Below, piece after piece: positions 496 to 21,558 of a stretch of DNA of 40,349 bases. A program made the translations under genes and the position numbers. The DNA comes from Candidatus Doudnabacteria bacterium RIFCSPHIGHO2_02_FULL_46_11. Lineage in GTDB: Bacteria > Patescibacteriota > Doudnabacteria > UBA920 > 2-02-FULL-46-11. Position 1 is the first letter of the stretch; each line of letters begins with the position of its first letter. The notes below the pieces were generated by a model. That model was not told where the DNA came from. It saw only the letters and a program-made list of their open reading frames with translations, and did no database searches. The stretch is taken from contig MFES01000001.1 in NCBI GenBank assembly GCA_001779955.1, positions 1 to 40,349 of the forward strand, given 5' to 3'.

Positions 496-502
496 AGAAT
501 TC

Positions 503-539
503 ACAGGTCAGACCTCGGTCAGATAGAGGTCTGACCTGT
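503..539. repeat. Perfect 14-bp-stem hairpin ACAGGTCAGACCTC-N9-GAGGTCTGACCTGT; same stem core as 11083-11117
   Basis: Read directly. Lies between the PEBP gene 3' end and the hppA start. No T-run, so it is not a canonical intrinsic terminator. Confidence 0.7.
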
Positions 540-621
540 CTGTAATAATTATAAAACTTAAAAAAGCCGTTTAGGCTTAGTTCATACTTAATACTACTAA
601 AAACCAGCGTCTTTGCAAAGT

Positions 622-1065: not shown

Positions 1066-1089
1066 GAATTCTAGAATTAATTCTATAAT

Positions 1090-1539: not shown

Positions 1540-1590
1540 AAGGAAAATTTACAGATAAAACCTCCGGCAGTCATTGTGTGAAAAACCAAT

Positions 1591-3709: not shown

Positions 3710-3741
3710 CCTATTTTAGTAAGTAGCTAGTAGTAAGTAGT

Positions 3742-5124: not shown

Positions 5125-5209
5125 AGTACAGGCTTATACTAACAGATTCTCTAGCTTCGCAAAAACGCCGCTTAATAACGACCCCGCAAGTCGTTAGTAG
5201 ATAGGTTGC

Positions 5210-5950
5210 CTAATTTCGCAAAAACCGCTCAATTTCTCTGGCTAGAGTCGGCCGGGTGGTGAAGGATATACCTAAATGCCCGCCGCGCTTGTAGGTCTTT
5301 AGCTTGCAACCCAATTTCTTTGAAAAGGCAATTACTGACTTATACGAAACCGATTCATCGTCCTTGGCGTGAATTAAAAAAATCTTTTTGGGGTCAAGCT
5401 CCTTAAGATGATTAACAGGATTGTAAAATTTTCCTGCCTTTAATTTGTTCCAATCTTTCATACTAAATCGATAGACCAATCCAAAACCAAGGCGAATGAA
5501 CAAGCCCAAAAAACCGAGGGGTTCGGCCCGGAGCGGCACTCGCCAATCTACAACTGGCGATATGCCAACTACCTTACTGACCCGTGCGTCGCGCGACGCT
5601 AAAATTGCAGCAGGTCCGCCAAAACTACTGCCAAAAATGTAAATCCTTTGCGGTTTAACTATAAAGGTCTTGCTATACCAAAAATCCTTGAACGGTTTAG
5701 ACAAAGCATTAAGAACGTCTAAAATATCCTTTTCCGGCGAATCTTTCAAAAACCTGCCTCCGCTCTCCCAGGAACCCCTGTATCGCGGCAGAAAAACCCA
5801 ATAACCTTGAGCCGCCCAAAATTGCAGCAGTTCCTTCATGCGCGGCGCCGAGGGCATGCCCATAGCAAAAATAATGACTTTGTTTGAAGGCCTGCCCGGC
5901 GGCAAAAACTCGCAGATTATATCCTTGGCAAAACGAGTGCGTAAAATCAT
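5210..5950 (-). CDS. Alpha/beta hydrolase
   Basis: 246 aa; nucleophile elbow GSSFGG, later D and H (HAKDDESV, GGHLG) consistent with a Ser-Asp-His fold. Confidence 0.65.
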   Translation of the reverse strand: MILRTRFAKDIICEFLPPGRPSNKVIIFAMGMPSAPRMKELLQFWAAQGYWVFLPRYRGSWESGGRFLKDSPEKDILDVLNALSKPFKDFWYSKTFIVKPQRIYIFGSSFGGPAAILASRDARVSKVVGISPVVDWRVPLRAEPLGFLGLFIRLGFGLVYRFSMKDWNKLKAGKFYNPVNHLKELDPKKIFLIHAKDDESVSYKSVIAFSKKLGCKLKTYKRGGHLGISFTTRPTLAREIERFLRN

Positions 5951-7131
5951 GTTTTAGAAAAAAGTTTAGTTTTAAAAAGGCCGCGCCCGGCAAACAAAAC
6001 AGAGGCGGCAAGAATGATTGAGTAGAACAGGAACAATACCTCCAGACTCCATAGTTTAAGAATAACAGCGCTTACGATAAAACTCAACAGCGAGCCAATT
6101 TTTGAAATTGAGTAATAACCGGTCAATACGTCAGTTTCCATATTCTCGCGCTCGCCAATTTCAGACATCAAGCTAACCGCCGATACGCCCCAAATGGCCG
6201 TGCCAAAACCGGTAACAACCAAAGCGACAAGCAAATATGAAAAATCTGGGCTTTTGGAAATAAGAAATATCCCGATAGCGGCCAAAATAAGTCCGGTTAA
6301 GCTTAAAAGCGGTCTGCCATATTTGTCCGCCAGACCGCCAAAATAAGGCAGTAGCAAATGAGGAAGTCCGAAAGCAAAAACGGCCAGACCAATGTAACCG
6401 ACGGGTAAGCCAAGCGTATCTACTACAAAAAGTGGCACGAATAAATCAAGTTTGACTATTGTGGCGTGGGCGGCCACGCCCAGAACGCCAAGGGCGCGCA
6501 ACTGTCTAACCGACCAGTATTTTTTAAGCTCTGCCGCCCAACTCTGCAAGGAAATATCGGGAAAGGCCGGCACAACCGGCGCATGCTGGCTACGTCTGGT
6601 AAAAACATAAAAGGCAAGCAATAAATTAATAAGGACGGAAATTATGAAAGGCGTAACGATATTAAACTCTTCGGCAAGTTTGGTGCCGACCAAGGGACCG
6701 AGCAAGTTTCCTAGCCAAATAAAGCTTAAAAGCCAGCCTGTTTTTTTGCCTCTCTCATTTTCAGAAATACTATCCTCAACCTTTGAGAGCAAAAGCATGG
6801 CGCAAAACGCCCCCGCAACAGCATCGAGGAACCTGGCCCCAACTATCATTAGCCAGTTTACGTGCCAAATATAAAAAACAAGCGACAAAGCAGCCGCCGC
6901 AAAGCCAATGGCCATCACCCTGTTCCGGCCTATTTTTTGGGCCAACAATGCCGCCACAGGTCCCATAATTACACCGCCTAAAGCAAAAGCGGCGGACATC
7001 AGGGATATTTGCCATTTATCAAAACCTATTCGTTCAAGATACGGCCCGAGCAGTGGATGGGCCAAAAAAGTGGCAAAAGCAAAGAGGATACTTAGGCCGG
7101 TAAATCTTTTGAAGGCGTAACGGTCAATCAT
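5947..7131 (-). CDS. MFS transporter
   Basis: 394 aa, about 12 hydrophobic segments, loop motif AQKIGRNRVM; 4-nt overlap with the downstream hydrolase gene. Confidence 0.75.
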   Translation of the reverse strand: MIDRYAFKRFTGLSILFAFATFLAHPLLGPYLERIGFDKWQISLMSAAFALGGVIMGPVAALLAQKIGRNRVMAIGFAAAALSLVFYIWHVNWLMIVGARFLDAVAGAFCAMLLLSKVEDSISENERGKKTGWLLSFIWLGNLLGPLVGTKLAEEFNIVTPFIISVLINLLLAFYVFTRRSQHAPVVPAFPDISLQSWAAELKKYWSVRQLRALGVLGVAAHATIVKLDLFVPLFVVDTLGLPVGYIGLAVFAFGLPHLLLPYFGGLADKYGRPLLSLTGLILAAIGIFLISKSPDFSYLLVALVVTGFGTAIWGVSAVSLMSEIGERENMETDVLTGYYSISKIGSLLSFIVSAVILKLWSLEVLFLFYSIILAASVLFAGRGLFKTKLFSKT

Positions 7132-7181
7132 TAATTTGCCGCTGTCGATAAATTTTAAAACATGCCATAATTATAACAATT

Positions 7182-8141
7182 ATGATAAAAACTGCCGAAT
7201 TCGTTTCGCCCAAGCATCCGGATAAGACGTGTGACTACATTGCCGATACTATTCTCGATGCTTTTTTAAAAAAAGATCGCCAGAGCCGCGTGGCGGTTGA
7301 AGTCATGGGCGGCCACGGTTTGATAACGGTCAACGGCGAAGTTACCAGCAGGGCTCGATTCAAACTGGAACCGATTGTCAAAAAAATTGTCGGCGCCAAA
7401 TACCGGGTAATCGTCAGGCTGGCCCATCAGAGCCCCGAGATTGCCAAAGGTGTGGACACCGGCGGCGCCGGAGACCAGGGCATAATGGAGGGCTACGCTA
7501 CCAGCGAATCGGCGAACTTTATGCCGCTAGAATACAATTTGGCGCGCTATATTTGCCAGAGAATTTTTAAAAAACATCCCCACGACGGCAAAGTCCAGGT
7601 TACCATTGAAGGCAACCCGCCTGCGGGCAGGACGGGCAGGGTTTTAACGGTTGTGGCAAGCTTTCAGAGCACAAAAACGCCGGAACTCTTGAAGCTGGTT
7701 AAATCAATAATTAAGGCCGATGAATATCTCATAAATCCGGCGGGCGAGTGGCACATGGGCGGATTTGACGCCGACTCAGGACTTTCCGGCCGCAAGCTTG
7801 TGGTTGATAATTATGGTCCGGAAATTTCCATAGGTGGCGGGTCGTTTTCCGGAAAGGATTATACTAAAGTTGATCGAAGCGGTGCTTATATGGCCAGAAA
7901 AATCGCGGTTGATTATTTGCGCAAATTTAGGGCCAAAGAAGTAAAAATAAAATTAGCCTATGCCATAGGCAAAAAGGATCCGGTCATGGCCGAAGCAGTT
8001 ATTGACGGCAGGCGAATGCCGGTTGAAGGCTATGATCTATCGCCAACCGGCATTAGAGAACTTTTAAAATTGGATAAGGCGCAATTTGTTAAAACCTCGC
8101 AATGGGGACATTTTGGCAATGATTTTTTGTGGGACAAGTAG
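7182..8141 (+). CDS. metK: S-adenosylmethionine synthetase, short form
   Basis: 319 aa; SPKHPDKTCDYIAD, GAGDQGIM, GGGSFSGKDYTKVDRSGAY motifs. CATAAT box ends 10 nt before the ATG. Confidence 0.85.
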   Translation: MIKTAEFVSPKHPDKTCDYIADTILDAFLKKDRQSRVAVEVMGGHGLITVNGEVTSRARFKLEPIVKKIVGAKYRVIVRLAHQSPEIAKGVDTGGAGDQGIMEGYATSESANFMPLEYNLARYICQRIFKKHPHDGKVQVTIEGNPPAGRTGRVLTVVASFQSTKTPELLKLVKSIIKADEYLINPAGEWHMGGFDADSGLSGRKLVVDNYGPEISIGGGSFSGKDYTKVDRSGAYMARKIAVDYLRKFRAKEVKIKLAYAIGKKDPVMAEAVIDGRRMPVEGYDLSPTGIRELLKLDKAQFVKTSQWGHFGNDFLWDK

Positions 8142-8166
8142 GTTACGGCGGATTGATTGATAAACC

Positions 8167-8215
8167 AAAAAAAGACGAACCCGCCGCAACGAGGCGGCGG
8201 GTTCTTGTCTTTTTC
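8167..8215. terminator. Bidirectional intrinsic terminator between metK and island A
   Basis: AAAAAAA-GAC-GAACCCGCCGC-AACGAG-GCGGCGGGTTC-TTGTCTTTTT; 11-bp GC stem at 8177-8204 flanked by A-run and T-run. Confidence 0.8.
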
Positions 8216-8243
8216 CATTGCCTGGGGAGGTGAGGCTCGCGAG

Positions 8244-8792
8244 CTAGAGCGTCAGTTGCTCGTAAACCTCATGTTGGAAGCGTGCGTCAGTCCAGCGGAC
8301 AACCGGGTCGGAACCGGTGAATGCGATCCTCACCAAACCCAACCGGTCGAAGTCTCGAAGAACACTGCCGCGGATGTGGGAGCGTTCCGACTGGCTGGCT
8401 ACCAGACAGACGAACTTCGGTTCGGAAAGCTCCAAGATCCCAGCCGCGCGGTATTTGCGCATAGCCAGGAGCAGCATCCGGCCAGTCTTATGGCCTGCCT
8501 CGCGCGCCACAGCGGTCGCCATGGCCTTGAGACCCTTGTCCGCGGGGTGGTACATACCCTCATCAGTCTTGTAGATCGCCCCCATCTCCAGCAGCTGCTC
8601 AAGGCAGCGGGGGAGATTAAGGTCAACTACAGCCTGATGATCGTGAACGCGCGCTTCAACTTGATGAAGGTTGAGACCGGGGCAGGCGCAGATCTCCGTG
8701 AGCACTGCGCGGTAGTTCCTCCCTTTCTTGCCGGCGATATTGCGCGCCAGCCGCGGGGGGTTGCGTACCGGATGGCCGAGTTGCGACTTCAT
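8244..8792 (-). CDS. Island A: hypothetical protein, probably two tandem winged-helix DNA-binding domains
   Basis: GC-rich with third codon positions mostly G/C. ATG at 8792 is preceded by AGAGGAG; the track ORF begins at GTG 8798. Wing-like segments LEQLLEMGAIYKTDEGMYHP and LRDFDRLGLVRIAF. Confidence 0.6.
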   Translation of the reverse strand: MKSQLGHPVRNPPRLARNIAGKKGRNYRAVLTEICACPGLNLHQVEARVHDHQAVVDLNLPRCLEQLLEMGAIYKTDEGMYHPADKGLKAMATAVAREAGHKTGRMLLLAMRKYRAAGILELSEPKFVCLVASQSERSHIRGSVLRDFDRLGLVRIAFTGSDPVVRWTDARFQHEVYEQLTL

Positions 8793-8932
8793 TACCACAC
8801 TCCTCTGTTCGCGATGGTTTTTTGTAGCGCCGCTGAAGCGTTACATCAAACCTGTCTACGGCTGATGGAAAAGACCATCGAAACCTCCGTGTTTAGATGA
8901 ATAATACCGGCTTTTCGCCGTATATGACTTAA

Positions 8933-8961
8933 ATTCTATCATATAATGTACTAAATGGCAA
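8933..8961 (-). promoter_or_regulatory. Candidate sigma70 promoter for island A (TTGCCA-N17-TAGAAT)
   Basis: Read on the minus strand; leaves a roughly 130-nt leader before ATG 8792. Confidence 0.5.
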
Positions 8962-8981
8962 TATTTCGCTATATTTAAATA

Positions 8982-10454
8982 ATGATTCCGGAAAAGATAA
9001 AACTAATTTCCAAAGAGATTTCTAATAACGGCGGCTGTGCTTTTTTGGTAGGCGGTTCCGTGCGTGACCATTTGTTAAAATCTCCGGTTAAGGATTTTGA
9101 CGTTGAAGTCTACGGCTTAAAATTACCGGCCCTTAAAAAAATAGTAGGTAGGTATGGAAAAGCCAAAGAAGTAGGAAAAACTTTTGGCGTTATCAAAATT
9201 TTTACTAAAGAGGAGTTGGAGATTGATTTTTCCCTACCGCGCAAAGATATAAAAATTGCGCGAGGGCACCGCGGTTTTAAAATAACGACCGATCCGGCTT
9301 TAAATTACAAAAAAGCGCTGAAGAGACGAGATTTCACCATCAACAGTATTCTACTCGATCCGCTTACCGGAGAATTCATTGACCCTTTCAATGGCCGTGA
9401 AGATTTAAAAAAGAGAGTGCTTCGAGTAACCGATAAAACAACCTTTGCCGAGGACCCGCTGCGGGTGCTGCGGGCAATTCAACTGGTCGCCAGATATGAG
9501 CTAAAAATAGAGCCCCGAAGCAGAAAAATAATAAAGGCTGCGGCGCCGCGGCTGAAGGAATTGAGCAAAGACAGAATTTGGACGGAATGGAAAAAGTTGC
9601 TTTTAGCCCATAGACCGTCACTCGGGCTTGAGGCCGCCCGCGAACTCGGTTTAACCAAAACTTTTTATCCGATGCTTGCCGCCTTGGAAAAAACGCATGA
9701 AAACCCGGCCTGGCATCCGGAAAAAAATGTTTGGCAGCATTGCAAGCTGACGGCCGACCAGGCCGCTTTGATTGCGGCCACAGAAAAACTTAACCTGTTC
9801 GAATCAACACTGCTAGTCCTGGCCGGAATCTGCCATGATTTAGGAAAGCCCCTTACCAGCCGAATCGTAAATGGCGTCAGACGAACCATTGGCCACGCAA
9901 AGGCCGGAGAGAAACCGGCCCGTGAATTTCTTAAAGCCATTGGCGCGCCGAATATCTACTATAAAAAAATTCTCGGCCTGGTTTTATACCATATGCGGCC
10001 CTTATCCTGGTATCTGGGCAAAGAAGAATTCAGCAGCGCCGGCATCAGGCGGCTGGCGCGCGATTTGCACCCCTATGGCCTAACGTTCCGTGAACTTGCA
10101 CGCTTGAGCCTGGCAGACAATAGGGGACTGGGCGAATTCCCGCCCGCGCAAAGGCTAGAGAAAAAGAGAGAAAAAGAACGTTTCATTACCTTCCTAAAAA
10201 AATTGGAAAAAAGGGCGGCCAGCCTCCGTGTTCTTTCTGCACAGCCGAAGGCAGTCGTGAGCGGACGGGATTTGTTAAAACTGGGTTTTAAGCCAGGCCC
10301 GAATATAGGCGCGGCAATGCGGTTAGCCGAAGACTTGGGCGATTTGAACTTTAAAAAAACTGCTATACTTAAAAAAATGGGTAAAATTACCAGAGATAAT
10401 ACTGAAAAAAAAGTTATATTAAAGTTACAATCGCTGGTCAAGACCAGACAATAA
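8982..10454 (+). CDS. cca: CCA-adding tRNA nucleotidyltransferase with C-terminal HD domain
   Basis: 490 aa; GGSVRD..DFDVE, RRDFTINS, and HD-region HDLGKP. Confidence 0.85.
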   Translation: MIPEKIKLISKEISNNGGCAFLVGGSVRDHLLKSPVKDFDVEVYGLKLPALKKIVGRYGKAKEVGKTFGVIKIFTKEELEIDFSLPRKDIKIARGHRGFKITTDPALNYKKALKRRDFTINSILLDPLTGEFIDPFNGREDLKKRVLRVTDKTTFAEDPLRVLRAIQLVARYELKIEPRSRKIIKAAAPRLKELSKDRIWTEWKKLLLAHRPSLGLEAARELGLTKTFYPMLAALEKTHENPAWHPEKNVWQHCKLTADQAALIAATEKLNLFESTLLVLAGICHDLGKPLTSRIVNGVRRTIGHAKAGEKPAREFLKAIGAPNIYYKKILGLVLYHMRPLSWYLGKEEFSSAGIRRLARDLHPYGLTFRELARLSLADNRGLGEFPPAQRLEKKREKERFITFLKKLEKRAASLRVLSAQPKAVVSGRDLLKLGFKPGPNIGAAMRLAEDLGDLNFKKTAILKKMGKITRDNTEKKVILKLQSLVKTRQ

Positions 10455-10473
10455 CCATTAATTAAAAAAACCT

Positions 10474-11079
10474 ATGTTCGAACTCCCGAATTTGCCCTAT
10501 GAACTCAATGCGCTCGAACCCTTTATCGACGCGCAAACCATGGAAATCCACCACGGCAAGCACCATGCCGCCTACGTAAAAAAATTAAATGAGGCCCTAG
10601 AGGCCAAAAAAGATTTGCAGTCAAAATCGATTGAGGAAATTTTGCAATCGCTTGATTCTTTGCCGGAAGAGGTACGTACCAAGGTACGTAATAACGGCGG
10701 CGGGCATTATAACCATTCATTTTTTTGGCCTTTGATGAAACAGAATGGCGGAGGAGAACCAGCCGGCGATTTAGCCCAGGCTATAAACGACGCTTTTGGA
10801 AACTTCGCAGATTTCAAAATCAAATTTTCCGAAGCGGCCGCAAATCATTTTGGCAGCGGCTGGGCTTGGCTTACATTTGAGGATGGAAAGCTAACCATTT
10901 CAACTACGCCAAATCAGGATAGCCCTGTGATGCGCGGCATAAAACCGATCTTAGGCCTCGACGTTTGGGAGCACGCCTATTACCTCAAATATCAAAACAA
11001 ACGTCCTGACTATATAAATGCCTGGTGGAATGTAGTGAACTGGGAACAAGCCGAAGAAAACTACGCAAACGCCAAGTAA
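10474..11079 (+). CDS. sodA: Fe/Mn superoxide dismutase
   Basis: 201 aa; [45 protein letters not shown]. Confidence 0.9.
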
Positions 11080-11082
11080 TTC

Positions 11083-11117
11083 CAGGTCAGACCTATAGTT
11101 TGCCCAGGTCTGACCTG
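11083..11117. repeat. Hairpin CAGGTCAGACCT-N10-AGGTCTGACCTG, paralog of the 503-539 hairpin
   Basis: 12-bp stem 4 nt after the sod stop; stem sequence identical to the core of the hairpin at 503-539. Confidence 0.7.
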
Positions 11118-11182
11118 TATTAAACGCCCAACATAGTATTAAAAGCCGAAAGCCGCTTAACCATTTGCGGTTGATTTTTGAT

Positions 11183-11211
11183 TTGCATTAAATTTAAAAT
11201 AGTGCTATAAT
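11183..11211 (+). promoter_or_regulatory. Candidate promoter for island B (TTGCAT-N17-TATAAT)
   Basis: Read directly; followed by a 49-nt leader and SD AAGGGGG 4 nt before ATG 11261. Confidence 0.55.
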
Positions 11212-11260
11212 ATATATCATCCCAAAAGAGTACAGACCTCGGCCAAAAGAAGGGGGTAGG

Positions 11261-11593
11261 ATGAAGTTCCGCTCCACAGTACCGGAAGTGGCCATGGTGA
11301 GGGCGCTGTCGGCCGTTCTAGACTGCGACGTGACAATCACGATCGTCGGCGGGGTTGTCACGGTTTTCGCGGATACGAACCGCCGCACAGAACCATTCCA
11401 TCCGTGGCCAGTGCCCAAGGACGAGCTTCCGCTCTCGATGAGGCGCCGCTCCGTGAGTGGCGCGCTGCCTCGGCATCTGGTGAGCGAGATGCTCACAACG
11501 GCACTCGTGATACGCGCCATCAACGCTGGTGCTGTCCCTGAAGAAGTCGATGAGACCCAGTTGCTGCTCGACTGGGACAAAATCGACGAGTAG
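11261..11593 (+). CDS. Island B: hypothetical 110-aa protein
   Basis: GC-rich ORF; I read the codons and third positions are predominantly G/C. Has its own promoter, SD and terminator. No family recognised. Confidence 0.6.
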   Translation: MKFRSTVPEVAMVRALSAVLDCDVTITIVGGVVTVFADTNRRTEPFHPWPVPKDELPLSMRRRSVSGALPRHLVSEMLTTALVIRAINAGAVPEEVDETQLLLDWDKIDE

Positions 11594-11621
11594 CAAAGGA
11601 GGGTTACCTAAAGCAAGCGAA

Positions 11622-11655
11622 CCCCGCGCCAGATTTTTGTGGCGCGGGGAATGTG
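11622..11655 (+). terminator. Intrinsic terminator of island B
   Basis: CCCCGCGCC-AGATTTTTGT-GGCGCGGGG followed by AATGTGTTTT. Confidence 0.7.
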
Positions 11656-11720
11656 TTTTAAATAGACAAATACTCAAAAAATTGATACAATTTTTTTGGC
11701 AAAATTTTATGTTAATATTG

Positions 11721-11769
11721 TAGGATCGTCTAACGGTGGGACACGTGCCTCTGGAGCACAGAATCTTGG
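11721..11769 (+). pseudogene. Truncated 5' two-thirds copy of tRNA-Gln (no T-loop, no 3' acceptor strand)
   Basis: 11723-11769 matches 11795-11841 of the intact tRNA at 44 of 47 positions. One change breaks the anticodon stem (C:A). The acceptor 5' strand is not conserved. Confidence 0.7.
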
Positions 11770-11790
11770 CACGCCCCCACACCTTATCGC

Positions 11791-11864
11791 TCCGGGATCG
11801 TCTAACGGCAGGACATGTGCCTCTGGAGCACAGAATCTTGGTTCGAATCCAAGTCCCGGAACCA
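11791..11864 (+). tRNA. tRNA-Gln (anticodon CUG), CCA encoded
   Basis: Manual cloverleaf: acceptor TCCGGGA/TCCCGGA, D stem GTC/GAC, anticodon stem TGTGC/GCACA with loop CTCTGGA, T arm CTTGG-TTCGAAT-CCAAG, discriminator A plus CCA. Confidence 0.85.
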
Positions 11865-11892
11865 GAAAAGACGGCGTCTTTAGATAGCATCC

Positions 11893-12070
11893 TTTTTCTA
11901 TAGGCGACTTGGATTCGAACGGGAAGGGGGTTGGGGAAACGGTAGTTTCCCCGTGGTGGAAATACTAAAACCGCAAGGTTTTAGAAAGGCGGTCAATGAC
12001 CGCCGCGTGAGATTCCAGGTCCCGGAACCATTGGGTGTGAGGGTGAAAATCCATATCCCCCAGCCAAGAA
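11893..12070 (+). ncRNA. Candidate structured RNA of unknown class, built around a split tRNA-Gln T-arm/acceptor fragment
   Basis: CTTGGATTCGAA (11908-11919) and TCCAGGTCCCGGAACCA (12014-12030) match the tRNA-Gln 3' third. Between them lie 94 nt with three GC hairpins (11933-11952; 11967-11982 with a GCAA loop; 11988-12004). The unit ends at a strong terminator. Confidence 0.4.
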
Positions 12071-12100
12071 AAAACCGCTATTTGCTAGCGGTTTTTTCTT
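12071..12100 (+). terminator. Intrinsic terminator closing the tRNA-Gln/candidate RNA unit
   Basis: AAAACCGCTA-TTTGC-TAGCGGTTTTTTCTTT. Confidence 0.8.
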
Positions 12101-12117
12101 TGTTAAATTAAATAGTT

Positions 12118-12149
12118 TCGCCGCGCACCTAAAAATCGGTGCGCGGCGA
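12118..12149 (-). terminator. GC hairpin downstream of island C
   Basis: TCGCCGCGCACC-TAAAAATC-GGTGCGCGGCGA, 12-bp stem; the T-run on the minus strand is weak. Confidence 0.5.
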
Positions 12150-12199
12150 ATGCGAATCCGAATTCATCTCAGTTGTGGGTCCCGAGACGCTTCGTCCGA

Positions 12200-12457
12200 C
12201 TATCTGACCTCGGCTGAGCAGTTCCTCGCAGCGTACCGAGCGGCACAGAAACCCAGATACCGAGTAGTTCCGAGCGTGCGATCGTCCCTGTATGAAGAGT
12301 GGATCTGCCCTTCTTTGTAGCCCTCTGTCCACTCGGCACGACGCTGTTCGCCCTCCTCGACGCTCAAGCCGGGATACTTCGGACAAGTGAGAATATGCGG
12401 AGTCTCAATCTGATCCCGTACAACAGGGCGCCTGCAGAGTTCGCAGGTTTTTGGCAT
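12200..12457 (-). CDS. Island C: hypothetical 85-aa protein with N-terminal CxxC
   Basis: ATG preceded by GAAGGGGGG; MPKTCELCRRP...LTCPKYPG. The frame choice is uncertain, because an alternative frame 12129..12386 is also open. Confidence 0.4.
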   Translation of the reverse strand: MPKTCELCRRPVVRDQIETPHILTCPKYPGLSVEEGEQRRAEWTEGYKEGQIHSSYRDDRTLGTTRYLGFCAARYAARNCSAEVR

Positions 12458-12540
12458 TTGACCCCCCTTCGTTGTGAACTAGATACTAAAATAATGCCAC
12501 GCTTTTGGAGTGGTGTAAACATTCAATCCAAAAAGCCTTG

Positions 12541-13488
12541 TTAGATTAACTTTAATTTATCTCCGACACCTGCGGCAAAATCGGCGGCTTTCATGCGTTT
12601 ACCACCCGACACCTGTAACTCCAAAATCTCCAAGGCCACTGTGCCAGTGCCTATGAATATTCTCTTGTTGTCCACTTCGACCTCTCCGGGTTTTAATTTT
12701 TTATCCGAAATCTCTACCTTAAAAATTTTCAACCCTTGTTCTTCAATTTTTATTTTTGATTTTTCCATTTTGATTTTGCTATATGTTCCCGGCCAGGGAT
12801 TAAGGGCGCGAATTTGCCTGTCGATCTCATCTGCCGGTTTTTGCCAGTCGATTTTACCGTCTTCCTTTTTAAACGATGGGGCAAGAGTCGCTAATTCATG
12901 GTTTTGTTCGCGAGGCTTAATTTCGCTTGATAAATATTTGAATAACGACTCATCTAAAAGTTCAACTGATAAATCTTCAGATTTTTTATGCAATGATTCG
13001 AAAGTTTCGTCAGGATCAACGGATATTTCTTTTTGACTAATTATTGGGCCGTGATCAAGTAATTCATCTAAAACAAAAAGTGTAACCCCTGTTACTTTCT
13101 CCCCAGCCCAAATAGCGTACTGCATAGGTGCGGCACCCCTATATTTAGGGAGTAGGGAAACGTGTAAATTTAAAAAGCCCTTGCGAGGTATATCTAAAAT
13201 ATTTTTAGGGATTATCTTCCCATATGAGGCGACAACTGCTACGTCTAGCGACAAATGCTTTAAGACTTGTTCAATATAAATATTTTTTAAGTCATTTGGC
13301 TGCAACAAAATTATTTGTTTATCTCCAAGCCATTGCTTTACCGGTGAGCTTGATAATTCCTGCTTGCGGCCCACCGGCTTATCGGGCGAGGTAGCAACAG
13401 CCACGAGGCTTGTATTTTCGTATAGCCAAGCTAATACCGGCAAACCAAAAGCAGAGGTGCCGAAAAATATTACTCGAGGTTTATCCAT
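12541..13488 (-). CDS. fmt: Methionyl-tRNA formyltransferase
   Basis: 315 aa; FFGTS.F..P.L, NLHVSLLPKYRGAAPMQYAI, and a C-terminal domain. Confidence 0.9.
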   Translation of the reverse strand: MDKPRVIFFGTSAFGLPVLAWLYENTSLVAVATSPDKPVGRKQELSSSPVKQWLGDKQIILLQPNDLKNIYIEQVLKHLSLDVAVVASYGKIIPKNILDIPRKGFLNLHVSLLPKYRGAAPMQYAIWAGEKVTGVTLFVLDELLDHGPIISQKEISVDPDETFESLHKKSEDLSVELLDESLFKYLSSEIKPREQNHELATLAPSFKKEDGKIDWQKPADEIDRQIRALNPWPGTYSKIKMEKSKIKIEEQGLKIFKVEISDKKLKPGEVEVDNKRIFIGTGTVALEILELQVSGGKRMKAADFAAGVGDKLKLI

Positions 13489-13984
13489 AAAATTCCTTAG
13501 TTAGCTCATCGCGCTCGGCCTTGCTTAAACGGTCAACAAACAACATGCCGTTAATGTGATCAACTTCGTGCTGGATAACATGTGCCAAAAAACCGTCTGC
13601 CTTAAACTCGAGTTTTTTACCCTTGGGGTCGTAGGCAACCACATCCACTTTCTCCGCCCTCTCTACTTTGGCAAATTTGCCGGGAACGGAAAGACAACCT
13701 TCTTCCAAAAGCAATTTTTTAGCTGAATACTTTTGTATTTTAGGATTGATTAAAGGGAAAGGCGGCACCTTTAGGTGCTCAAGATTAATAATCACCACCT
13801 GCAAATTAACGCCAACTTGCGGCGCGGCAATACCAACACCCTTAGATTTCCTGCAAATACGGAGCATTTCAGCAAGTAGGCGTTGAAAATCACGAGATAA
13901 GGGAAATTTAACCTTTTCACTAGGCTCCCTCAAATTTTCCGCCGGCAAGGTCACCAGTTTTAACTGATGTTTATTGTTTGACAT
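13481..13984 (-). CDS. def: Peptide deformylase
   Basis: 167 aa; GVGIAAPQVG, EGCLSVPG and HEVDHINGMLF motifs; 8-nt overlap with fmt. Confidence 0.9.
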   Translation of the reverse strand: MSNNKHQLKLVTLPAENLREPSEKVKFPLSRDFQRLLAEMLRICRKSKGVGIAAPQVGVNLQVVIINLEHLKVPPFPLINPKIQKYSAKKLLLEEGCLSVPGKFAKVERAEKVDVVAYDPKGKKLEFKADGFLAHVIQHEVDHINGMLFVDRLSKAERDELTKEFYG

Positions 13985-14267
13985 TCTCTTTTTCTATTAT
14001 GCCTAAATAATAAAGAAAGGCTTCATCACCGGCCTTGCCCTGCTCTTTGACCAAAGCAAACCTACGCTCTAAAACCGGTAGATTTCGCCTGGCATGGCTC
14101 ATTAAAATCGCCCGCACATCAAGCGGATCTTTGTCCTTATTGGTTTGCACATAGCGGGGCAAATGCAGATCTTCAATTATATTCAAAACCGCATCCTGCC
14201 ACTTGAACCTGACGCGATTTTTATCTTTCAATTTCTGCAATTTGCTAATTTTATCGTCTATTTCCAT
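13971..14267 (-). CDS. Hypothetical 98-aa protein
   Basis: Backbone-like composition; overlaps the def start by 14 nt, so probably co-transcribed. No family recognised. Confidence 0.5.
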   Translation of the reverse strand: MEIDDKISKLQKLKDKNRVRFKWQDAVLNIIEDLHLPRYVQTNKDKDPLDVRAILMSHARRNLPVLERRFALVKEQGKAGDEAFLYYLGIIEKENVKQ

Positions 14268-14307
14268 AGCTGGATGTATTATAACGTAATGTTATAATTA
14301 CAGCACT

Positions 14308-15015
14308 ATGACAGGGCAACTTTGGGATATTGAGGGCGCGGACGGCAGCGGCAAGGAAACCCAAACCCGCCTGCTGATTGACCGGCTAAACCAGCCCGGC
14401 GTTTTAGGCGGAAATAAGGCGCATTACTGGACCTTTCCGACCTATGAAGACCCGGTTTGGGGAAAACTGATTAAGGAGCATCTGGCGGACATTTCTAAAA
14501 AGGCCGATGATTATGACCCGCAGTACACCGCGCTTTTGTATGCGGCTGACCGCGGCAAGGCCGCAGTCAAGCTACAACCGCTGATTAAAGCGGGCGATTG
14601 GATAATCTGCGACCGTTATATTGCTTCGAATATGGCCTTTCAGGGGGCAAAAATAAAGGATGAAAAAAAACGTGATGAGTTCGTCAGCTGGCTCGAAGAC
14701 AAAGAATATAATTATTTTCAAATTCCCAAGGCCGCTGGCACAATATACCTTTCACTGCCCGTTGAAGTCAGCATGGCGCGCACGGAAAAAAGAAGGCAGG
14801 AGGCAATTGAAAAAGGTTTAGCCTTAGGCGATAAAATAAAAAAGGCCGACATTTATGAGCAAGACAGGGAATTTTTGGAAAGAGTGCGGAACGAATACTT
14901 GCGCCTGGCTCCCCTCAAGGGATGGCACGTGATAAACTGTGTTCAGGAAGGACGCGAACTGCCGCGCGAAGAAATCGCAGAGAAAATTTGGCAAATAGTA
15001 TCAATAAACCCATGA
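14308..15015 (+). CDS. tmk: Thymidylate kinase
   Basis: 235 aa; P-loop DIEGADGSGKETQ, DRY motif (CDRYIASN). TATAAT at 14293-14298 lies 9 nt from the ATG. Confidence 0.8.
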   Translation: MTGQLWDIEGADGSGKETQTRLLIDRLNQPGVLGGNKAHYWTFPTYEDPVWGKLIKEHLADISKKADDYDPQYTALLYAADRGKAAVKLQPLIKAGDWIICDRYIASNMAFQGAKIKDEKKRDEFVSWLEDKEYNYFQIPKAAGTIYLSLPVEVSMARTEKRRQEAIEKGLALGDKIKKADIYEQDREFLERVRNEYLRLAPLKGWHVINCVQEGRELPREEIAEKIWQIVSINP

Positions 15016-15572
15016 CAACTAAACGCATGTTCATATCTGTTGAACTGCCAGAAACCGTAAAAGCCATGCTTGACGGCCTACAGTTGGAATCAAGCAATAT
15101 CAGTTGGCTCAACCCCGACCAATATCACATCACTATTTACTTCTTGGGCGAAATAAATGCCGGCCAAGAAAATGAGGTTAAAAAAATACTTTCCAACGAA
15201 ATGTTTGATTTTCCGGAAATTGATTTAAAACTTAGCGCGGTAAGTATTGTAAAGGGACGAATGATTTGGGTGGAAGTGGAAGACCAAACCGGCCTTTTGC
15301 AAAAGCTATATTCAGAATTGCGTGAAAAAATAATACTGGCAAAAATAGGTGAGCCGGCCCGTGAAATCTTGGCACCCCATATCCTGCTCGGCAAAAGTGT
15401 CGGACATGACAAACTATTGGACCAAGATACTACCATTAAGGACTTAAAGAATAATTTTAAACCTTTTTCGCTCAAGGCTTCAGGCGTGTCATTATTCGAA
15501 AGCGAACTAAGACCCCAAGGAGCTTTGCATGTCAAGGTGCGAGATTTTGTCTTTGGGCGCTCTCATTCATAG
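15012..15572 (+). CDS. thpR: RNA 2',3'-cyclic phosphodiesterase (2H phosphoesterase, LigT/ThpR)
   Basis: Start moved to the internal ATG at 15012 (ATGA overlap with the tmk stop). MFISVELPE.., HITIYFLGE and HILLGK 2H motifs. Confidence 0.7.
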   Translation: MTTKRMFISVELPETVKAMLDGLQLESSNISWLNPDQYHITIYFLGEINAGQENEVKKILSNEMFDFPEIDLKLSAVSIVKGRMIWVEVEDQTGLLQKLYSELREKIILAKIGEPAREILAPHILLGKSVGHDKLLDQDTTIKDLKNNFKPFSLKASGVSLFESELRPQGALHVKVRDFVFGRSHS

Positions 15573-15578
15573 CTGCTT

Positions 15579-16385
15579 ATGCAAAAAGTAGACATCCTCG
15601 GCGTAAAAATTGACGCCCTGAAAAAAAATGAATTCCGGCAGCGTTTGCGTTCTCTGCTCGATGCAACGGAACGAAACAATAAAATAGTTACCACCACTTA
15701 CTCCGAATTTATCGTTACCGCCCAAAAGGACGAACGGTTCAGGGCTATCTTAAATTCAGCGGAACTAAATTTAGCCGATGGCATAGGCATACTTTGGGCG
15801 GCCACATATTTAAATGCAAAAATCAAAAATCAAAAATTAAAATTAGAAAAAATTAAACTTTTTTTAAAAACCGCCTATTGGACGGCCTTCGAGCAAGAAA
15901 AAATCCGAGATGTAATTCCGGAGCGCCTGCCCGGCGCCGATATTATTTGGGACGTATGCCAGATTGCCGAACAAACAGGCAATTCAATTTTTCTGCTTGG
16001 CGGCCACGGCCCGGTGGATGAAATACTTAAAAATAAGTTCCCGGCCCTAAAAATCGCTGGCCGGTATGAAGGCAACCCAAATGAGCCTGAACTAGCCGAA
16101 AGAATTAAAAAGACGAATACTGATATTTTGCTTGTCGCCTTCGGGCCAATTAAGCAAGAATACTGGCTCATGCATAATAGAAGCGATTTAAATGTAAAAA
16201 TCGCCGTGGGCCTGGGAGGAACCTTTGATTATTTAGTCGGTAATAAAAAAAGAGCAGGGGATACTTGGCAAAAATACGGGCTTGAATGGCTACACCGCCT
16301 ACTAACCCAGCCCTGGCGAATACGGCGAATGTGGAACGCGATTATCGTTTTTTCCTGGTTGGTGGTTCGACAAAAAATGAATTAA
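15579..16385 (+). CDS. WecB/TagA/CpsF family (GT26) glycosyltransferase
   Basis: 268 aa; ADGIGILWAA, IFLLGG, DILLVAFGPIKQEYW and GVGGTFD-like LGGTFDY. Confidence 0.8.
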   Translation: MQKVDILGVKIDALKKNEFRQRLRSLLDATERNNKIVTTTYSEFIVTAQKDERFRAILNSAELNLADGIGILWAATYLNAKIKNQKLKLEKIKLFLKTAYWTAFEQEKIRDVIPERLPGADIIWDVCQIAEQTGNSIFLLGGHGPVDEILKNKFPALKIAGRYEGNPNEPELAERIKKTNTDILLVAFGPIKQEYWLMHNRSDLNVKIAVGLGGTFDYLVGNKKRAGDTWQKYGLEWLHRLLTQPWRIRRMWNAIIVFSWLVVRQKMN

Positions 16386-16443
16386 AAAGCAATTACCGCC
16401 GACCAATGATCGACGGTAAAGGCCACACGGCCGGGTTGATGCG

Positions 16444-16653
16444 TCAGGTGGTGGCGACTACTGCCCGATCGGGGCGATTGTCATGCACGAGAGCATTCAG
16501 GCGCGCTTTCTCTGCCCTGAAGAACTCCCAGCAGTCAGCACAGTTACCGACATGCGCTTCAGCCGCTTGGCGGAGACCCGCAAATAGCGTCGGGCTGATG
16601 CTGGCGTTCATAATGACGTTGCGAACGTGGAGACAACCTGCCGCTTCTGCCAT
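16444..16653 (-). CDS. Island D: 70-aa protein with anti-sigma-factor-type zinc finger motif (H-x3-C-x2-C)
   Basis: ATG at 16653 preceded by GGAGGAAG (the track ORF starts earlier). AEAHVGNCADCWEFF fits the zf-HC2/ZAS pattern. GC-rich. Confidence 0.5.
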   Translation of the reverse strand: MAEAAGCLHVRNVIMNASISPTLFAGLRQAAEAHVGNCADCWEFFRAEKARLNALVHDNRPDRAVVATT

Positions 16654-16757
16654 ACTTCCTCCGATGTGTTGCGGGCAAAAATAAAGCACGCTAGGCGTGC
16701 CGCGGATGGTTCTTTATTTGTCGAAACAAGACCATATTAGATATAATTTAACTTATC

Positions 16758-18104
16758 ATGTTTAAAACGTCAAGAAAATCCGTAAAAACAAGGTTTGCCC
16801 CGTCGCCAACGGGTTTTTTGCACCTCGGCGGCTTGCGAACCGCGCTCTATGCCTATGTCTTTGCCAAACAGCACAAAGGCGAGTTCTTACTTCGCATAGA
16901 AGATACTGACCGGGCGCGATACGTGGCCGAGGCTGAAAAGAATATAAACGAGACCTTACAAACCTTTAATTTAGTGCCCGACCAGGAACCGGTGCGACAA
17001 TCCGACAGAATTGACGTTTATAAAAAATACGCCAATGAGCTTTTAGCTAAAAATTTAGCCTACGAAGATACAGGGGCCATCCGCTTTCGAATGCCAAAAA
17101 CCGGCACAACAAAGTTTAGCGACACTATCCGCGGCGAAATAGAAATAGAAAATAAAGACCAGGAAGATTTCGTCATTTTAAAGTCTGACGGCTACCCGAC
17201 ATACAATCTTGCCCACTTGATAGACGATTATGAAATGGGCATTACGCACGTCATTCGAGGCGAGGAGTTTATACCGTCTATGCCCAAGTATATCGCTCTT
17301 CATGAAGCGCTTGGTTGGCAGATCCCCGAATACGCTCATTTGCCATTGCTTTTGAACAAAAATCGCAGCAAACTATCGAAAAGGGAAGGCGACGTGGCGG
17401 TGGAAGATTACTTGAAAAAAGGTTATTTAAAAGAAGCAATATTGAACTTTGTGGCCCTTTTGGGCTGGCACCCGAGCCAATCAGAAAAAGAAATTTATAC
17501 GCTTCAAGAATTAATTCTAGAATTCAAGCTGGAGGACGTGCAAAAAGCCGGCGCAATTTTTGCCCTAGACAAGCTAAATTGGTTTCAGAAAGTTTGGATA
17601 ACTAAACTAAGCGATGAATCGAAAAATATAGCGAATCATCCGTTTTATCAAATAGTCAAGAGACACCTGCCCGAGGCTTCGGACAATTTTTTGGCCAGGC
17701 TGTGGCCACATTTAACCGAACGCCTGACTGCTCCCGAAAATTACGAAAAAGATTTGGATGAATTTAGCTTCTTTGTTAAGAAGCCGGATTTTGAAGCAAA
17801 ATTGTTGGTTTGGAAAAAATCGGACAAAGAAACGACCGGTGAAGTTTTGACAAAATTATTGGAATTTCTAAAACAACTACCCGATTATTTATGGGACAAG
17901 GAGGAACTCGAGAATAATGTCAAAAATTTTATTTCTGAAAATAATTGGGACAACGGCACCGTGCTTTGGCCGCTGCGCGTGGCACTTACCGGACGCGAAA
18001 AATCCATGGGTCCGTTTGAAATAATGGACATTTTAAATCAGACCGAGAATAGGGGAGTCGTTTTTGAAAGAATCGAAAAAGCCATAAGCATACTCACCCG
18101 GTAA
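16758..18104 (+). CDS. gltX: Glutamate--tRNA ligase
   Basis: 448 aa; RFAPSPTGFLHLGG (HIGH) and KLSKR (KMSKS). TATAAT at 16742-16747 lies 10 nt from the ATG. Confidence 0.9.
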   Translation: MFKTSRKSVKTRFAPSPTGFLHLGGLRTALYAYVFAKQHKGEFLLRIEDTDRARYVAEAEKNINETLQTFNLVPDQEPVRQSDRIDVYKKYANELLAKNLAYEDTGAIRFRMPKTGTTKFSDTIRGEIEIENKDQEDFVILKSDGYPTYNLAHLIDDYEMGITHVIRGEEFIPSMPKYIALHEALGWQIPEYAHLPLLLNKNRSKLSKREGDVAVEDYLKKGYLKEAILNFVALLGWHPSQSEKEIYTLQELILEFKLEDVQKAGAIFALDKLNWFQKVWITKLSDESKNIANHPFYQIVKRHLPEASDNFLARLWPHLTERLTAPENYEKDLDEFSFFVKKPDFEAKLLVWKKSDKETTGEVLTKLLEFLKQLPDYLWDKEELENNVKNFISENNWDNGTVLWPLRVALTGREKSMGPFEIMDILNQTENRGVVFERIEKAISILTR

Positions 18105-18162
18105 CTTTTCTGTCAGATATTATTTTACAATACGATGGGTATTGTGCTATAATATATAGACT

Positions 18163-19476
18163 ATGTTCGAGGCTACAAGGGTGAAAATAAGAAACAAAAA
18201 AACTAAATTGAGGCAAACCATTTTAAAATCGGCCTTAGTCGTTTTTTTGTCATTAGCCCTTGCTTTGGCAAACAATATACCTCTGCCGGATGCCGGTGCG
18301 GCCACAATTGAACAAGAACTTCAGGCCAAACAGCAACGGTTAAAAGAACTTGAAAACCAAATTAGTCAAACCACCAAAGATATAAACTCATTGGTTAAAC
18401 AGCAGAATACCTTACAGAACTCAATTAAAATTTTTACGGCGCAGATAAGCCAGGTTACCACCCAGATTGTCGTTACGGAAACTAAAATCGAAATCGCGGG
18501 CGATAAAATCACCGAGCTTAACGGGCAAATTCGCATCAAAGAAAATGAGGTGGAAAGAGTCAAACAAAACCTGGCCAACCTGATACGGGAACTCTACCAG
18601 ATGGATAGGTCAGACTCAACCATTATGGCCTTAATGAATAACGACAACCTTTCAGATTTCATTAACGCGGTTTCCCAAATAGAAAACGTACATGGCCGAA
18701 GCTATGAACTGCTCCAGGATATTAAGGAGCTAAAAGTACAGCTTGAAGACAACCGCGCGGAGGTGCAGGAGCAAAAAAAAGAGCTTGAGCAGTTTGAAAT
18801 CGCCCTTACGGACCAGAAAAATCTGCTTGATAACCAAGTAAAGGCAAAGAATGATTTATTGGTTAAAACCAAAAATCAGGAAAGTATCTACCAGGCATTG
18901 CTGGCGCAAAACAAGAACGAAGAGGATAAAATACAGCAGGAAATTCAAGATTTAGAGAATAAAATCCGGGTACAGCTTGGTGAGCGTACTTCACCGGGCA
19001 AAAAAGGTTTATTTAAAATTTGGCCGATGAACGGCACCTTGACCCAAGGCTACGGCAACACAGGTTTCCGTTCGCTTGGCTATTCGTTCCATAACGGTTT
19101 AGACATTGCCGCCGCAGCCGGCACGCCAATTTATAACGTTTACGACGGCACGGTTAACGGCACAGGTTCAAGCGATAAGGCTTACGGCAACTGGGCCACG
19201 GTCAGGTATGAATTGCCAAACGGCCGCTGCGTGGTAGCCCTTTATGCCCATATGCTTAAGCGGAGCGTAAGCGACGGCCAAAGCCTGAAGGGCGGAGCGG
19301 TGATCGGTACCGAGGGCAACACCGGCAATACCACACGTTTGCTTTACGGACCGCATCGCGGTTTTCACCTGCATTTTACCGTATTTGACTGTGAAGGATT
19401 CCAAATTGTAAAAAGCGTAAACGGAAACTACATGGTGCCAGTTGGGTATACCTATAACCCCAACGATTTCCTGTAA
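18163..19476 (+). CDS. M23 family metallopeptidase with long N-terminal coiled coil
   Basis: 437 aa; signal/TM, Q/E/K-rich coiled coil, then HNGLDIAAAAGTPIYNVYDGTV...ALYAHM...GNTG. TTACAA-N17-TATAAT (18125-18153) lies 9 nt from the ATG. Confidence 0.85.
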   Translation: MFEATRVKIRNKKTKLRQTILKSALVVFLSLALALANNIPLPDAGAATIEQELQAKQQRLKELENQISQTTKDINSLVKQQNTLQNSIKIFTAQISQVTTQIVVTETKIEIAGDKITELNGQIRIKENEVERVKQNLANLIRELYQMDRSDSTIMALMNNDNLSDFINAVSQIENVHGRSYELLQDIKELKVQLEDNRAEVQEQKKELEQFEIALTDQKNLLDNQVKAKNDLLVKTKNQESIYQALLAQNKNEEDKIQQEIQDLENKIRVQLGERTSPGKKGLFKIWPMNGTLTQGYGNTGFRSLGYSFHNGLDIAAAAGTPIYNVYDGTVNGTGSSDKAYGNWATVRYELPNGRCVVALYAHMLKRSVSDGQSLKGGAVIGTEGNTGNTTRLLYGPHRGFHLHFTVFDCEGFQIVKSVNGNYMVPVGYTYNPNDFL

Positions 19477-21419: not shown

Positions 21420-21558
21420 TTGGCACCTCAACTTATGGGGGAAAAGTAGGGATATTCAATTGGAAAGGAACTGCTTGCAGGTAGTATATCCAAACCTTCT
21501 GGAATGAGAAAGAGAAGTTCAATATAACGATAATGCAGGACCCAAGGCGGTTTTTAGT

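Follow-up and report, generated by a model that had tools for sequence, protein, structure and literature searches.

Nested tRNA-Gln fragments in a Doudnabacteria genome point to two families of small non-coding elements at tRNA loops

Introduction

How does a working tRNA gene come to lie inside a broken copy of itself, with further pieces of the same tRNA close behind it? The question is raised by a tRNA-Gln locus (11721-12066) in the first 40 kb of contig C1 (MFES01000001.1) of Candidatus Doudnabacteria bacterium RIFCSPHIGHO2_02_FULL_46_11, a stretch of 40,349 nucleotides referred to here as the window; the assembly (G000) comprises 862 kb and is 93% complete. An original prediction, made from the letters alone, described an intact tRNA-Gln accompanied by three derived pieces and read them as scars of integrase-mediated insertion at a hotspot that had delivered neighbouring GC-rich genes. 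We find instead a nest of three layers: a dead older tRNA-Gln encloses an inverted-repeat cassette, the cassette carries the working tRNA-Gln, and behind that gene lies a folded element, here called the tail element. We hold this anatomy with high confidence. The cassette and the tail element each belong to a family that is small, protein-less, tRNA-loop-targeting and apparently undescribed, and we put at roughly 60% the probability that the locus arose through two successive insertions, by these two families, into a resident tRNA-Gln gene. Comparisons covered a relative of the same family (G001), 146 genomes of the order and a phylum-wide sample of 401 genomes (320 genera); further genomes are labelled where needed (G021, G029, G030, G076), and C-numbers denote contigs.

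Results

The window holds one intact tRNA-Gln, as predicted: ARAGORN and Infernal both place a tRNA-Gln(CTG) with encoded CCA at 11791-11864 (+), and the Rfam tRNA model RF00005 matches 11791-11861 with 58.7 bits against a cut-off of 29 bits. Neither program calls a tRNA in the 5' fragment or in the arms described below. The gene is 96% identical to the tRNA-Gln(CTG) of syntenic G001. Upstream of it, 11721-11769 (+) is the 5' half of an older tRNA-Gln(CTG), covering positions about 1-53; over 11723-11769 (tRNA positions 5-51) it agrees with the intact gene at 44 of 47 positions and ends exactly at the T-stem 5' strand CTTGG, both as first described, and it has the same anticodon loop (CTCTGGA). 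This half is dead, with an acceptor strand that reads TGTAGGA against TCCGGGA in the intact gene and a C27.A43 mismatch that breaks the anticodon stem. The 3' remnant of the older gene lies at 12048-12066 (+) and consists of AAT (positions 58-60), CCATA, TCCCCCA, G73 and CCA; its G73 and its pattern CCAT...CCCC...AGCCA match the 3' ends of relatives' tRNA-Gln genes, such as GAATCCATCCCCCGGAGCCA in G030. A two-piece or permuted tmRNA (transfer-messenger RNA) and a split tRNA were considered and dropped, since ARAGORN found neither at the locus and the outer halves are decayed.

Repeat analysis resolved the remaining pieces into one direct family (D2), comprising three copies of the tRNA 3' end, and three inverted pairs, formed by two boxes (I1), an antisense arm (I2) and a terminator (I3). 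The D2 copy at 12014-12030 matches the last 17 nucleotides of the tRNA at 16 positions, as predicted; the third member, AAATCCATATCCCCCAGCCA at 12047-12066, is more decayed (70% identity to the tRNA 3' end). All three pieces listed originally are real, and this fourth one was missed together with the inverted repeat 11770-11783/12033-12047. The middle piece, CTTGGATTCGAA at 11908-11919, is present, but it is not the T-stem 5' strand plus T-loop as it had been labelled: read directly it agrees with the tRNA at 8 of 12 positions, whereas its reverse complement agrees at 12 of 12 and extends to 15 of 15 as GACTTGGATTCGAAC (11906-11920). Nor can the similarities be put down to chance, the outcome that would have undone the original prediction. 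With up to three mismatches, the 17-mer occurs in the window only at 11848 and 12014 (0.11 expected), and with at most one mismatch it occurs at only the same two places genome-wide (0.005 expected). The predicted fold of 11721-12068 is far more stable than that of shuffled sequences (z = -4.9) and includes a stalk formed by the two boxes. The nest contains no open reading frame (ORF).

The cassette occupies the old T-loop and measures 278 bp (11770-12047), enclosing the intact tRNA-Gln and its tail element. Its left box, CACGCCCCCACACC (11770-11783, +), pairs with 12033-12045 in the minimum free energy fold, and its right box, GGGTGTGAGGGTGAA (12033-12047, +), is an exact instance of the pattern GGTGTGRGGGTGAAA. 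The right-box motif was found in 46 of the 146 genomes of the order, with about 100 matches as against 15 for a reversed control; a scan of all reference genomes for the 14-mer CACGCCCCCACACC returned chance matches only, in GC-rich genomes. Across genomes the boxes follow the consensus TTCACCCCCACACC...GGTGTGGGGGTGAA, so that a short non-coding element bears terminal inverted repeats as a miniature inverted-repeat transposable element (MITE) does. At intergenic sites without a tRNA, TTCACCCCCACACC and GGTGTGGGGGTGAA enclose 8-90 nt of variable sequence; at tRNA sites they enclose a whole tRNA within a broken copy (e.g., Lys-ctt, Arg-ccg, Arg-cct and Val-cac), and one insertion lies in the TTCGGGT anticodon loop of a tRNA-Pro. 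Another repeat family (…GGAGCCCCGAGGCRCAGTRAACCCTCCCTTGC…GGTGTGAGGGTGAA), seen at C9:4170-4290, at C38:11540-11700 (-) and upstream of the tRNA-Asn gene on C2, shares the same right box, its left box being apparently interrupted by an extra hairpin.

The junctions are regular. The right one always falls after the fourth loop base (TTCG|NNT), in the window after G57 (TTCG|AAT), and at the left one CACG usually stands in place of TTCG, as it does here. The cassettes show no direct target-site duplication of fixed length, the left junction reading stem plus CACG and the right one TGAA plus the last three loop bases; TTCG is missing, and there are no duplicated bases. As in all other nests, the 3' remnant in the window follows directly after the right box and GTGAA.

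Within the study genome, CACGCCCCCACACC also follows tRNA 5' fragments on C20, an Arg(TCT) nest, and C31, an Arg(TCG) nest, and stands beside a Gly(CCC) nest on C38 that keeps only the 3' remnant of its outer tRNA. In the window and on C31 and C38 the complement, GGTGTGRGGGTGAA, lies on the far side of the complete tRNA and is followed by the last three T-loop bases, the T-stem 3' strand, the acceptor strand and CCA. Nests occur in G029 and G076 as well, and CACGCCCCCACACC itself in G029, where the Arg-ccg nest (G029:C4:4850-5350) is doubly nested with a second box variant. In that G029 Arg(CCG) nest the inner variant, CCCGCCCGCCCACC / GGTGGGCGGGTG, was observed inside a CCCCCACACC pair, with the 3' fragment repeated twice.

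Outer and inner tRNA share their anticodon in all five testable nests (chance about 1e-8), at identities from 65% (C20) to 96%. Such agreement suggests a survival filter, under which only self-replacing cassettes are tolerated, rather than simple local duplication. At C20:29330-29720 (-) a 5' fragment, a box, a tRNA-Arg(TCT) only 65% identical to the outer one and a tail-element core follow one another and the right box is absent; because the inner tRNA differs so much from the outer, a replacement tRNA can be foreign. The 3' arm of the C20 tail element matches the dead outer tRNA-Arg(TCT) and not the inner one, and the layout is one that insertions in the reverse order, together with a deletion, would explain best.

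The tail element follows a terminator-like trailer of A-run, hairpin and T-run (11865-11903, +, from the predicted fold). It consists of a 5' arm at 11906-11920 (+), antisense to tRNA positions 53-67 and complementary to 11841-11855 at 15 of 15 positions (pair I2); a conserved core at 11921-12013 (+) that ends in GTGAGAT and contains three hairpins (H1, 11933-11952; H2, 11965-11984; H3, 11988-12004; all +); and a 3' arm at 12014-12030 (+), a direct copy, at 16 of 17 positions, of 11848-11864, that is, of the T-stem 3' strand, the acceptor 3' strand, A73 and CCA. The stretch 11911-11985 recurs in the genome; a covariance model of the core (R1) scores 106.7 bits over 11911-12016 and finds 10 copies genome-wide. 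Nine lie directly downstream of, and on the same strand as, the genes for Gly-tcc, tmRNA, Glu-ctc, Arg-tct, Gln-ctg, Met-cat, Asn-gtt, Leu-tag and Ser-gga. The tenth (C13:738-870) stands just after the stop codon of rpsI (S9), at a T-loop-like GGTCGAAAC, with the last ~15 bases of the gene repeated behind it. The same rpsI insertion is found in another family (G021:C35), and the occupation of one site in two families indicates that this orphan copy is old.

All copies share one plan, in which a tRNA with CCA is followed by A-run, hairpin and T-run, an antisense arm, a three-hairpin core and a direct copy of the 3' end. The core junctions GGAAAGGGGUC, GUGGNGGAAAUA and GAGCAGUGANAU are conserved. 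In each copy the antisense arm is the reverse complement of the T-loop, the T-stem 3' strand and a variable stretch of the acceptor strand of its own tRNA: arms carry GATCGAA (Glu), AGTCGAA (Gly), AATTGAA (tmRNA) and ATTTGAA (Met), where the T-loops read TTCGATC, TTCGACT, TTCAATT and TTCAAAT. The arm is therefore truly antisense and not a second T-loop. The 3' arms run from about position 60 to CCA and match their own tRNA at 14 of 16 to 20 of 20 positions. In fresher copies the direct repeat goes past CCA through the tRNA's own terminator, continuing 9-30 nt into the trailer, to lengths of about 55 nt at the Gly locus of G021, about 50 nt at a Leu-taa locus and 28 nt at an Ile-gat locus. A hairpin similar to that of the trailer stands behind the tRNA in every tail-element copy and is duplicated after the 3' arm in fresher copies elsewhere. 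We considered this hairpin as a part of the element and rejected the idea, because bare tRNA genes of G001 have look-alike native terminators and the hairpin falls within the direct repeat of the fresher copies.

Over 15 copies, H1 and H2 are 96.8% paired, seven pairs show compensatory changes, and none of 500 shuffles reached the observed score. Wobble pairs say nothing of the strand (3 G.U and 3 A.C); only the loops, mostly GNRA-type on the tRNA strand, favour that strand. Rfam yielded nothing beyond tRNA over 11000-12800 at E<=10, and only tRNA and tmRNA for the nine other copies at the gathering score. Nor does the locus look like a self-splicing or BHB tRNA intron or a known small ribozyme, as the Rfam scan gave no match to such a family and the outer tRNA is decayed.

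The core is rare in the order, where four of the 146 genomes carry it, with 10 copies in the study genome and one in G001; in the phylum-wide sample it is widespread, being found in 44 of the 401 genomes and 37 of the 320 genera, with genomes carrying as many as about 10 copies. Of 28 loci sampled, at least 21 adjoin a tRNA gene, and many tRNA types are represented. Cores within the study genome resemble one another closely (Gly and Arg 93%, Gly and Glu 83%, Gly and tmRNA 80% identical), and the four cores at Gly, Arg, Glu and tmRNA, with 79-93% identity, each have arms that match their own target. Between genomes, cores at the same target are less alike, at 68% both for the tmRNA-linked pair of G000 and G001 and for the Gly-linked pair of G000 and G021. 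A tree of 15 cores had no highly supported branch, the sequences being short, and pairwise identities were used instead. Since cores cluster by genome rather than by target while their arms match their own tRNA, the core appears to have moved, or been converted, between tRNA loci, and the arms to have been re-made for each target rather than inherited as a guide. A third kind of tRNA-end insertion may be present at C30:43083-43260 of the same genome, where ~90 nt that bear no relation to the core separate a tRNA-Gln(TTG) from an 11-nt direct copy of its 3' end (CCCCGGAACCA).

The original prediction had proposed aligning relatives to find the empty site, and this succeeded. G001 is collinear with window positions 1-19000 and has its tRNA-Gln(CTG) in the same slot, between the genes for superoxide dismutase (SOD; window 10474-11079) and fmt (window 12541-13488). 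There the tRNA-Gln is bare, followed by a terminator, with no 5' fragment, box or downstream element. The accessory ORFs in the slot differ between G000 and G001; the slot is variable, nothing ties that variability to the tRNA fragments, and neither genome has an integrase in it. What had been called flanking GC-rich islands are two small ORFs without a Pfam match, outside every repeat boundary; the direct repeats enclose only 149 non-coding bases, which speaks against a hotspot that delivered GC-rich cargo. No further copy of the tRNA 3' end, of the kind that had been suggested as an att-like core, was found at any island border. Elsewhere in the otherwise collinear region, G001 lacks window 5947-8980, which holds an MFS transporter, an S-adenosylmethionine synthetase and a hypothetical gene. 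At 8982-10454 (+), 1.3 kb upstream of the locus, lies a gene for a CCA-adding enzyme (PolyA_pol head, RNA-binding and HD), although the tRNA genes examined encode their own CCA.

The upstream operon ends in a terminator at 11622-11649, and the promoter region of the old tRNA-Gln gene follows at 11663-11719 (+), with a sigma-70-like site (TAGACA-17-TACAAT and an upstream TG) at 11663-11691. The linker ahead of the inner tRNA in the cassette is only 7 nt long. With so short a linker, and with the promoter-like site upstream of the 5' fragment, the working tRNA must use the old promoter and be transcribed through the dead 5' half; this putative promoter is, on sequence grounds, what now drives the entire nest. 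Behind the nest, the bidirectional intrinsic terminator of the resident gene (12066-12100, +) is a perfect 15-bp inverted repeat with A- and T-runs (pair I3).

The genome has a single tyrosine recombinase gene (PF00589), at 22196-23158 (-), 10 kb from the locus, whose Xer-like product has Phage_integrase and SAM_1 domains and could be a host-encoded enzyme acting on hairpin or palindrome elements. It adjoins a GC-rich (0.56-0.59) ORF of 659 aa at 19452-21431 (-), which has no Pfam match. The only reverse transcriptase (RT) gene, C16:12420-13080 (-), is interrupted by a TAA stop and has a cluster of four tRNA genes (C16:9476-10395) some 2 kb away. Neither candidate enzyme gene is adjacent to any element copy examined. 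TnpB (PF07282) and Y1 transposase (PF01797) are absent from the genome as assembled (93% complete), DDE, IS110 and other families not having been searched. No integrase gene was found in or beside the element, where the repeats enclose no ORF and the Xer-like gene is the genome's only one of the tyrosine type (the search did not extend to serine recombinases). BLAST found nothing similar to 11600-12130 in phage and plasmid collections, and a full-text literature search found no description of tRNA-loop insertions or structured elements of this kind in CPR (candidate phyla radiation)/Patescibacteria.

Discussion

The anatomy of the nest, its recurrence, the covariation, the empty site and the match of arms to targets were observed, unlike mobility and the order of events, which we infer. 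In the history that we propose, a 278-bp cassette with a 13-14-bp inverted repeat would have entered the T-loop of the resident tRNA-Gln gene, splitting it and leaving its 5' half at 11721-11769 and a 3' remnant at 12048-12066. The complete tRNA-Gln(CTG) of the cassette would then have become the working gene, driven by the old promoter and freed by the usual tRNA processing. Such an insertion would survive only because its cargo supplies the tRNA that it destroys, after which the outer halves could decay. The tail element behind the cargo tRNA would have been inserted later or have been there already when the cassette arrived. Its mobile part would be the folded core of roughly 93 nt, around which the arms would be copied from the target at each insertion, one repeating tRNA positions 53 to about 67-76 in inverted orientation, the other being a direct copy from T-loop positions 58-60 to CCA. 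We consider both the mobility of the families and this break-and-replace logic likely.

One could envision insertion by a copy-choice or RNA-templated route that pivots on the palindromic tRNA terminator, rather than by a fixed-site recombinase. A target duplication of 17-55 nt, accompanied by an inverted copy that is palindromic with the tRNA end about the terminator hairpin, is unlike the fixed stagger of a transposase or the fixed attP of an integrase, and the variable duplication and inverted copy would better fit template switching (copy-choice) or target-primed synthesis. A wider proposal would make the core the active part of a new class of element, protein-less or dependent on a host enzyme, that is inserted as folded RNA or single-stranded DNA at TTCG-type tRNA loops, by copy-choice or target-primed synthesis, with an inverted and a direct copy of the target's 3' end written around the core; together with the cassettes it would then take part in a general break-and-replace turnover of essential RNA genes in ultra-small bacteria. 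We offer this as speculation only, which we would not expect to hold in full.

Several observations weigh against two insertions by mobile elements. No mobilising enzyme was identified, and the single RT gene is interrupted. The similarity of cores within a genome could reflect gene conversion instead of transposition, and the conservation and covariation of the core are equally compatible with a selected cellular RNA. The old 5' half and the outermost 3' remnant pair poorly to moderately (T-stem 3/5, acceptor stem 5/7), the 5' half pairing better with the 3' arm of the tail element, so that a different layering or order of events is possible. Finally, the flanks of the empty site in G001 cannot be aligned base by base, and the insertion boundaries therefore rest on the internal logic of the repeats.

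Among the explanations that would dispense with mobility, the one we took most seriously, though we judge it unlikely, is that the tail element is a structured cellular RNA, co-transcribed with the tRNA, whose arms are kept matched by selection. The arm stem with NCCA mimics an acceptor/T minihelix, and such an RNA could serve as a decoy, as a substrate for processing or CCA addition, or as a replacement 3' portion for tRNAs that have been cut in the T-loop. The family is conserved across the phylum, its core helices covary and its tetraloops are mostly GNRA-type on the tRNA strand; every element is on that strand, between the tRNA and a strong terminator, and the last bases of the 3' arm are exactly the NCCA of the cognate tRNA. 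A cellular function sits poorly, however, with an element that accompanies only about 10 of the 41 tRNA or tmRNA genes here and is present once in the same-family relative, that also occurs behind rpsI, and whose cores cluster by genome and not by tRNA. In most copies (e.g., Gly, Glu and Asn) decay has affected the acceptor portion of the stem formed by the arms, and a terminator-like hairpin separates the element from the tRNA while a promoter of its own is not visible. That the outer tRNA-Gln is itself functional, with the stalk, the inner tRNA and perhaps the tail removed at the RNA level as an intervening sequence, whether or not ligation follows, two tRNAs being obtained from a single promoter, we regard as very improbable. 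The nest is one transcription unit and the 12-13-bp stalk of the boxes holds the outer halves together in the predicted fold, but the outer acceptor stem retains 5 of 7 pairs and the T-stem 3 of 5, the anticodon stem has its C.A mismatch, TTCG is gone from the T-loop, ARAGORN and Infernal reject the outer copy, and the outer copies of other nests are truncated to varying degrees.

The integrase scars of the original prediction fare little better. The pieces would be attL/attR-type scars of islands that integrated at the tRNA-Gln and brought the neighbouring GC-rich genes, and the insert is indeed flanked by directly repeated tRNA 3' segments (11848-11864 and 12014-12030), a repeat that runs from T-loop to 3' end, as integrases of the T-loop class reportedly leave it; the SOD-fmt slot also holds different ORFs in G000 and G001. 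The pieces do look like products of insertion at a tRNA, given the bare tRNA in G001, and that part of the prediction stands. The integrase does not, with none nearby and with arms that match each target: there is no integrase within 10 kb and a single Xer-like recombinase in the genome, the repeats enclose 149 non-coding bases, no further att-like copy occurs in the genome, and neither the antisense arm nor the 5' half is a product of Campbell-type integration. Moreover, the same core stands behind other tRNA and tmRNA genes and behind rpsI, with arms matching each tRNA, which a single attP, tied to one target, cannot explain. We accordingly give this explanation a very small chance, if marginally more than the functional outer tRNA. 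Local tandem duplication or replication slippage, with chance resemblance of short pieces and no element at all, is hardly credible; short tRNA-derived repeats can arise in this way and the T-arm is palindromic, but the boxes and the core form conserved families at many unrelated tRNA loci in many genomes, and the chance expectations are tiny.

If two successive insertions of mobile elements are indeed the explanation, ultra-small bacteria of the CPR/Patescibacteria kind would host two gene-less element families living on tRNA genes, one of which breaks a tRNA gene and brings the replacement, the other wrapping a folded core in copies of the adjacent tRNA. Many of the "pseudo-tRNA" fragments and unusual tRNA calls in genomes of this kind would then be accounted for, there would be a route for the horizontal replacement of essential tRNA genes, and an insertion chemistry outside known integrases and transposases would be implied, one that is testable as the element is only about 100-280 bases long. 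The locus is especially informative because both families lie in one transcription unit, giving their relative order, and because it documents that a tail element is able to move with, or persist in, a cassette.

How do these elements compare with systems already described? The omega RNA of IS200/IS605 elements and the bridge RNA of IS110 elements come to mind for a structured RNA at an insertion site; here, by difference, TnpB is absent, no ORF is adjacent (an IS110 recombinase was not searched), and each target has different arms around cores that remain 93% identical, which means that a "guide" is not inherited and neither class applies. Retroelements use tRNA 3' ends, as in the primer-binding sites of retroviruses and other long terminal repeat (LTR) elements and the hybrid tRNA cDNAs of Neurospora mitochondrial retroplasmids. 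The tail element resembles them in its CCA-ended copy of 17-20 nt of the tRNA 3' end, its complementary segment, and a duplication of variable length as in target-primed or template-switching synthesis. It differs in having no LTRs and no ORF, in a genome whose only RT gene is interrupted, and the antisense arm of the window is no tRNA primer-binding site (an 18-nt complement with TGG, served by an active RT): spanning positions 53-67, it has no TGG (the CCA complement) and continues past position 58 as far as 53, TGGT being present only in the tmRNA copy.

MITEs and the palindromic repeats of bacteria (REP/BIME, RPE, Correia) are small and non-coding, with conserved terminal inverted repeats, many copies and a patchy distribution. 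The cassettes share all of these traits and include short intergenic versions of the boxes. They differ from such repeats in lacking a direct target-site duplication, in preferring 7-nt tRNA hairpin loops of TTCG type, in carrying a complete tRNA as cargo, and in that a search covering TnpB and Y1 turned up no cognate transposase.

Integrative elements, both tyrosine-integrase islands and prophages, reportedly use the T-loop sublocation of tRNA and tmRNA genes, as Williams is said to have described in 2002. The likeness lies in the T-loop target, the direct repeat from T-loop to CCA, and a tRNA intact on one side with its displaced 3' end on the other. Here, by contrast, there is no integrase or ORF, the elements measure about 110-280 bp rather than kilobases, one core family serves many tRNAs with re-made arms and an additional copy of the target in inverted orientation, and the direct repeat varies in length and can include the terminator. 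The break-and-replace logic is shared by tRNA-dependent lysogeny, in which the insertion is survivable thanks to a cargo tRNA carried by a whole temperate phage that has an integrase and, as its attP/attB core, about 10 bp (Guerrero-Bustamante and Hatfull 2024, PMC10865867). The locus described here differs in that the same logic would be carried out by a protein-less cassette of 278 bp, bounded by inverted repeats, expressed from the resident promoter and found in multi-layer nests.

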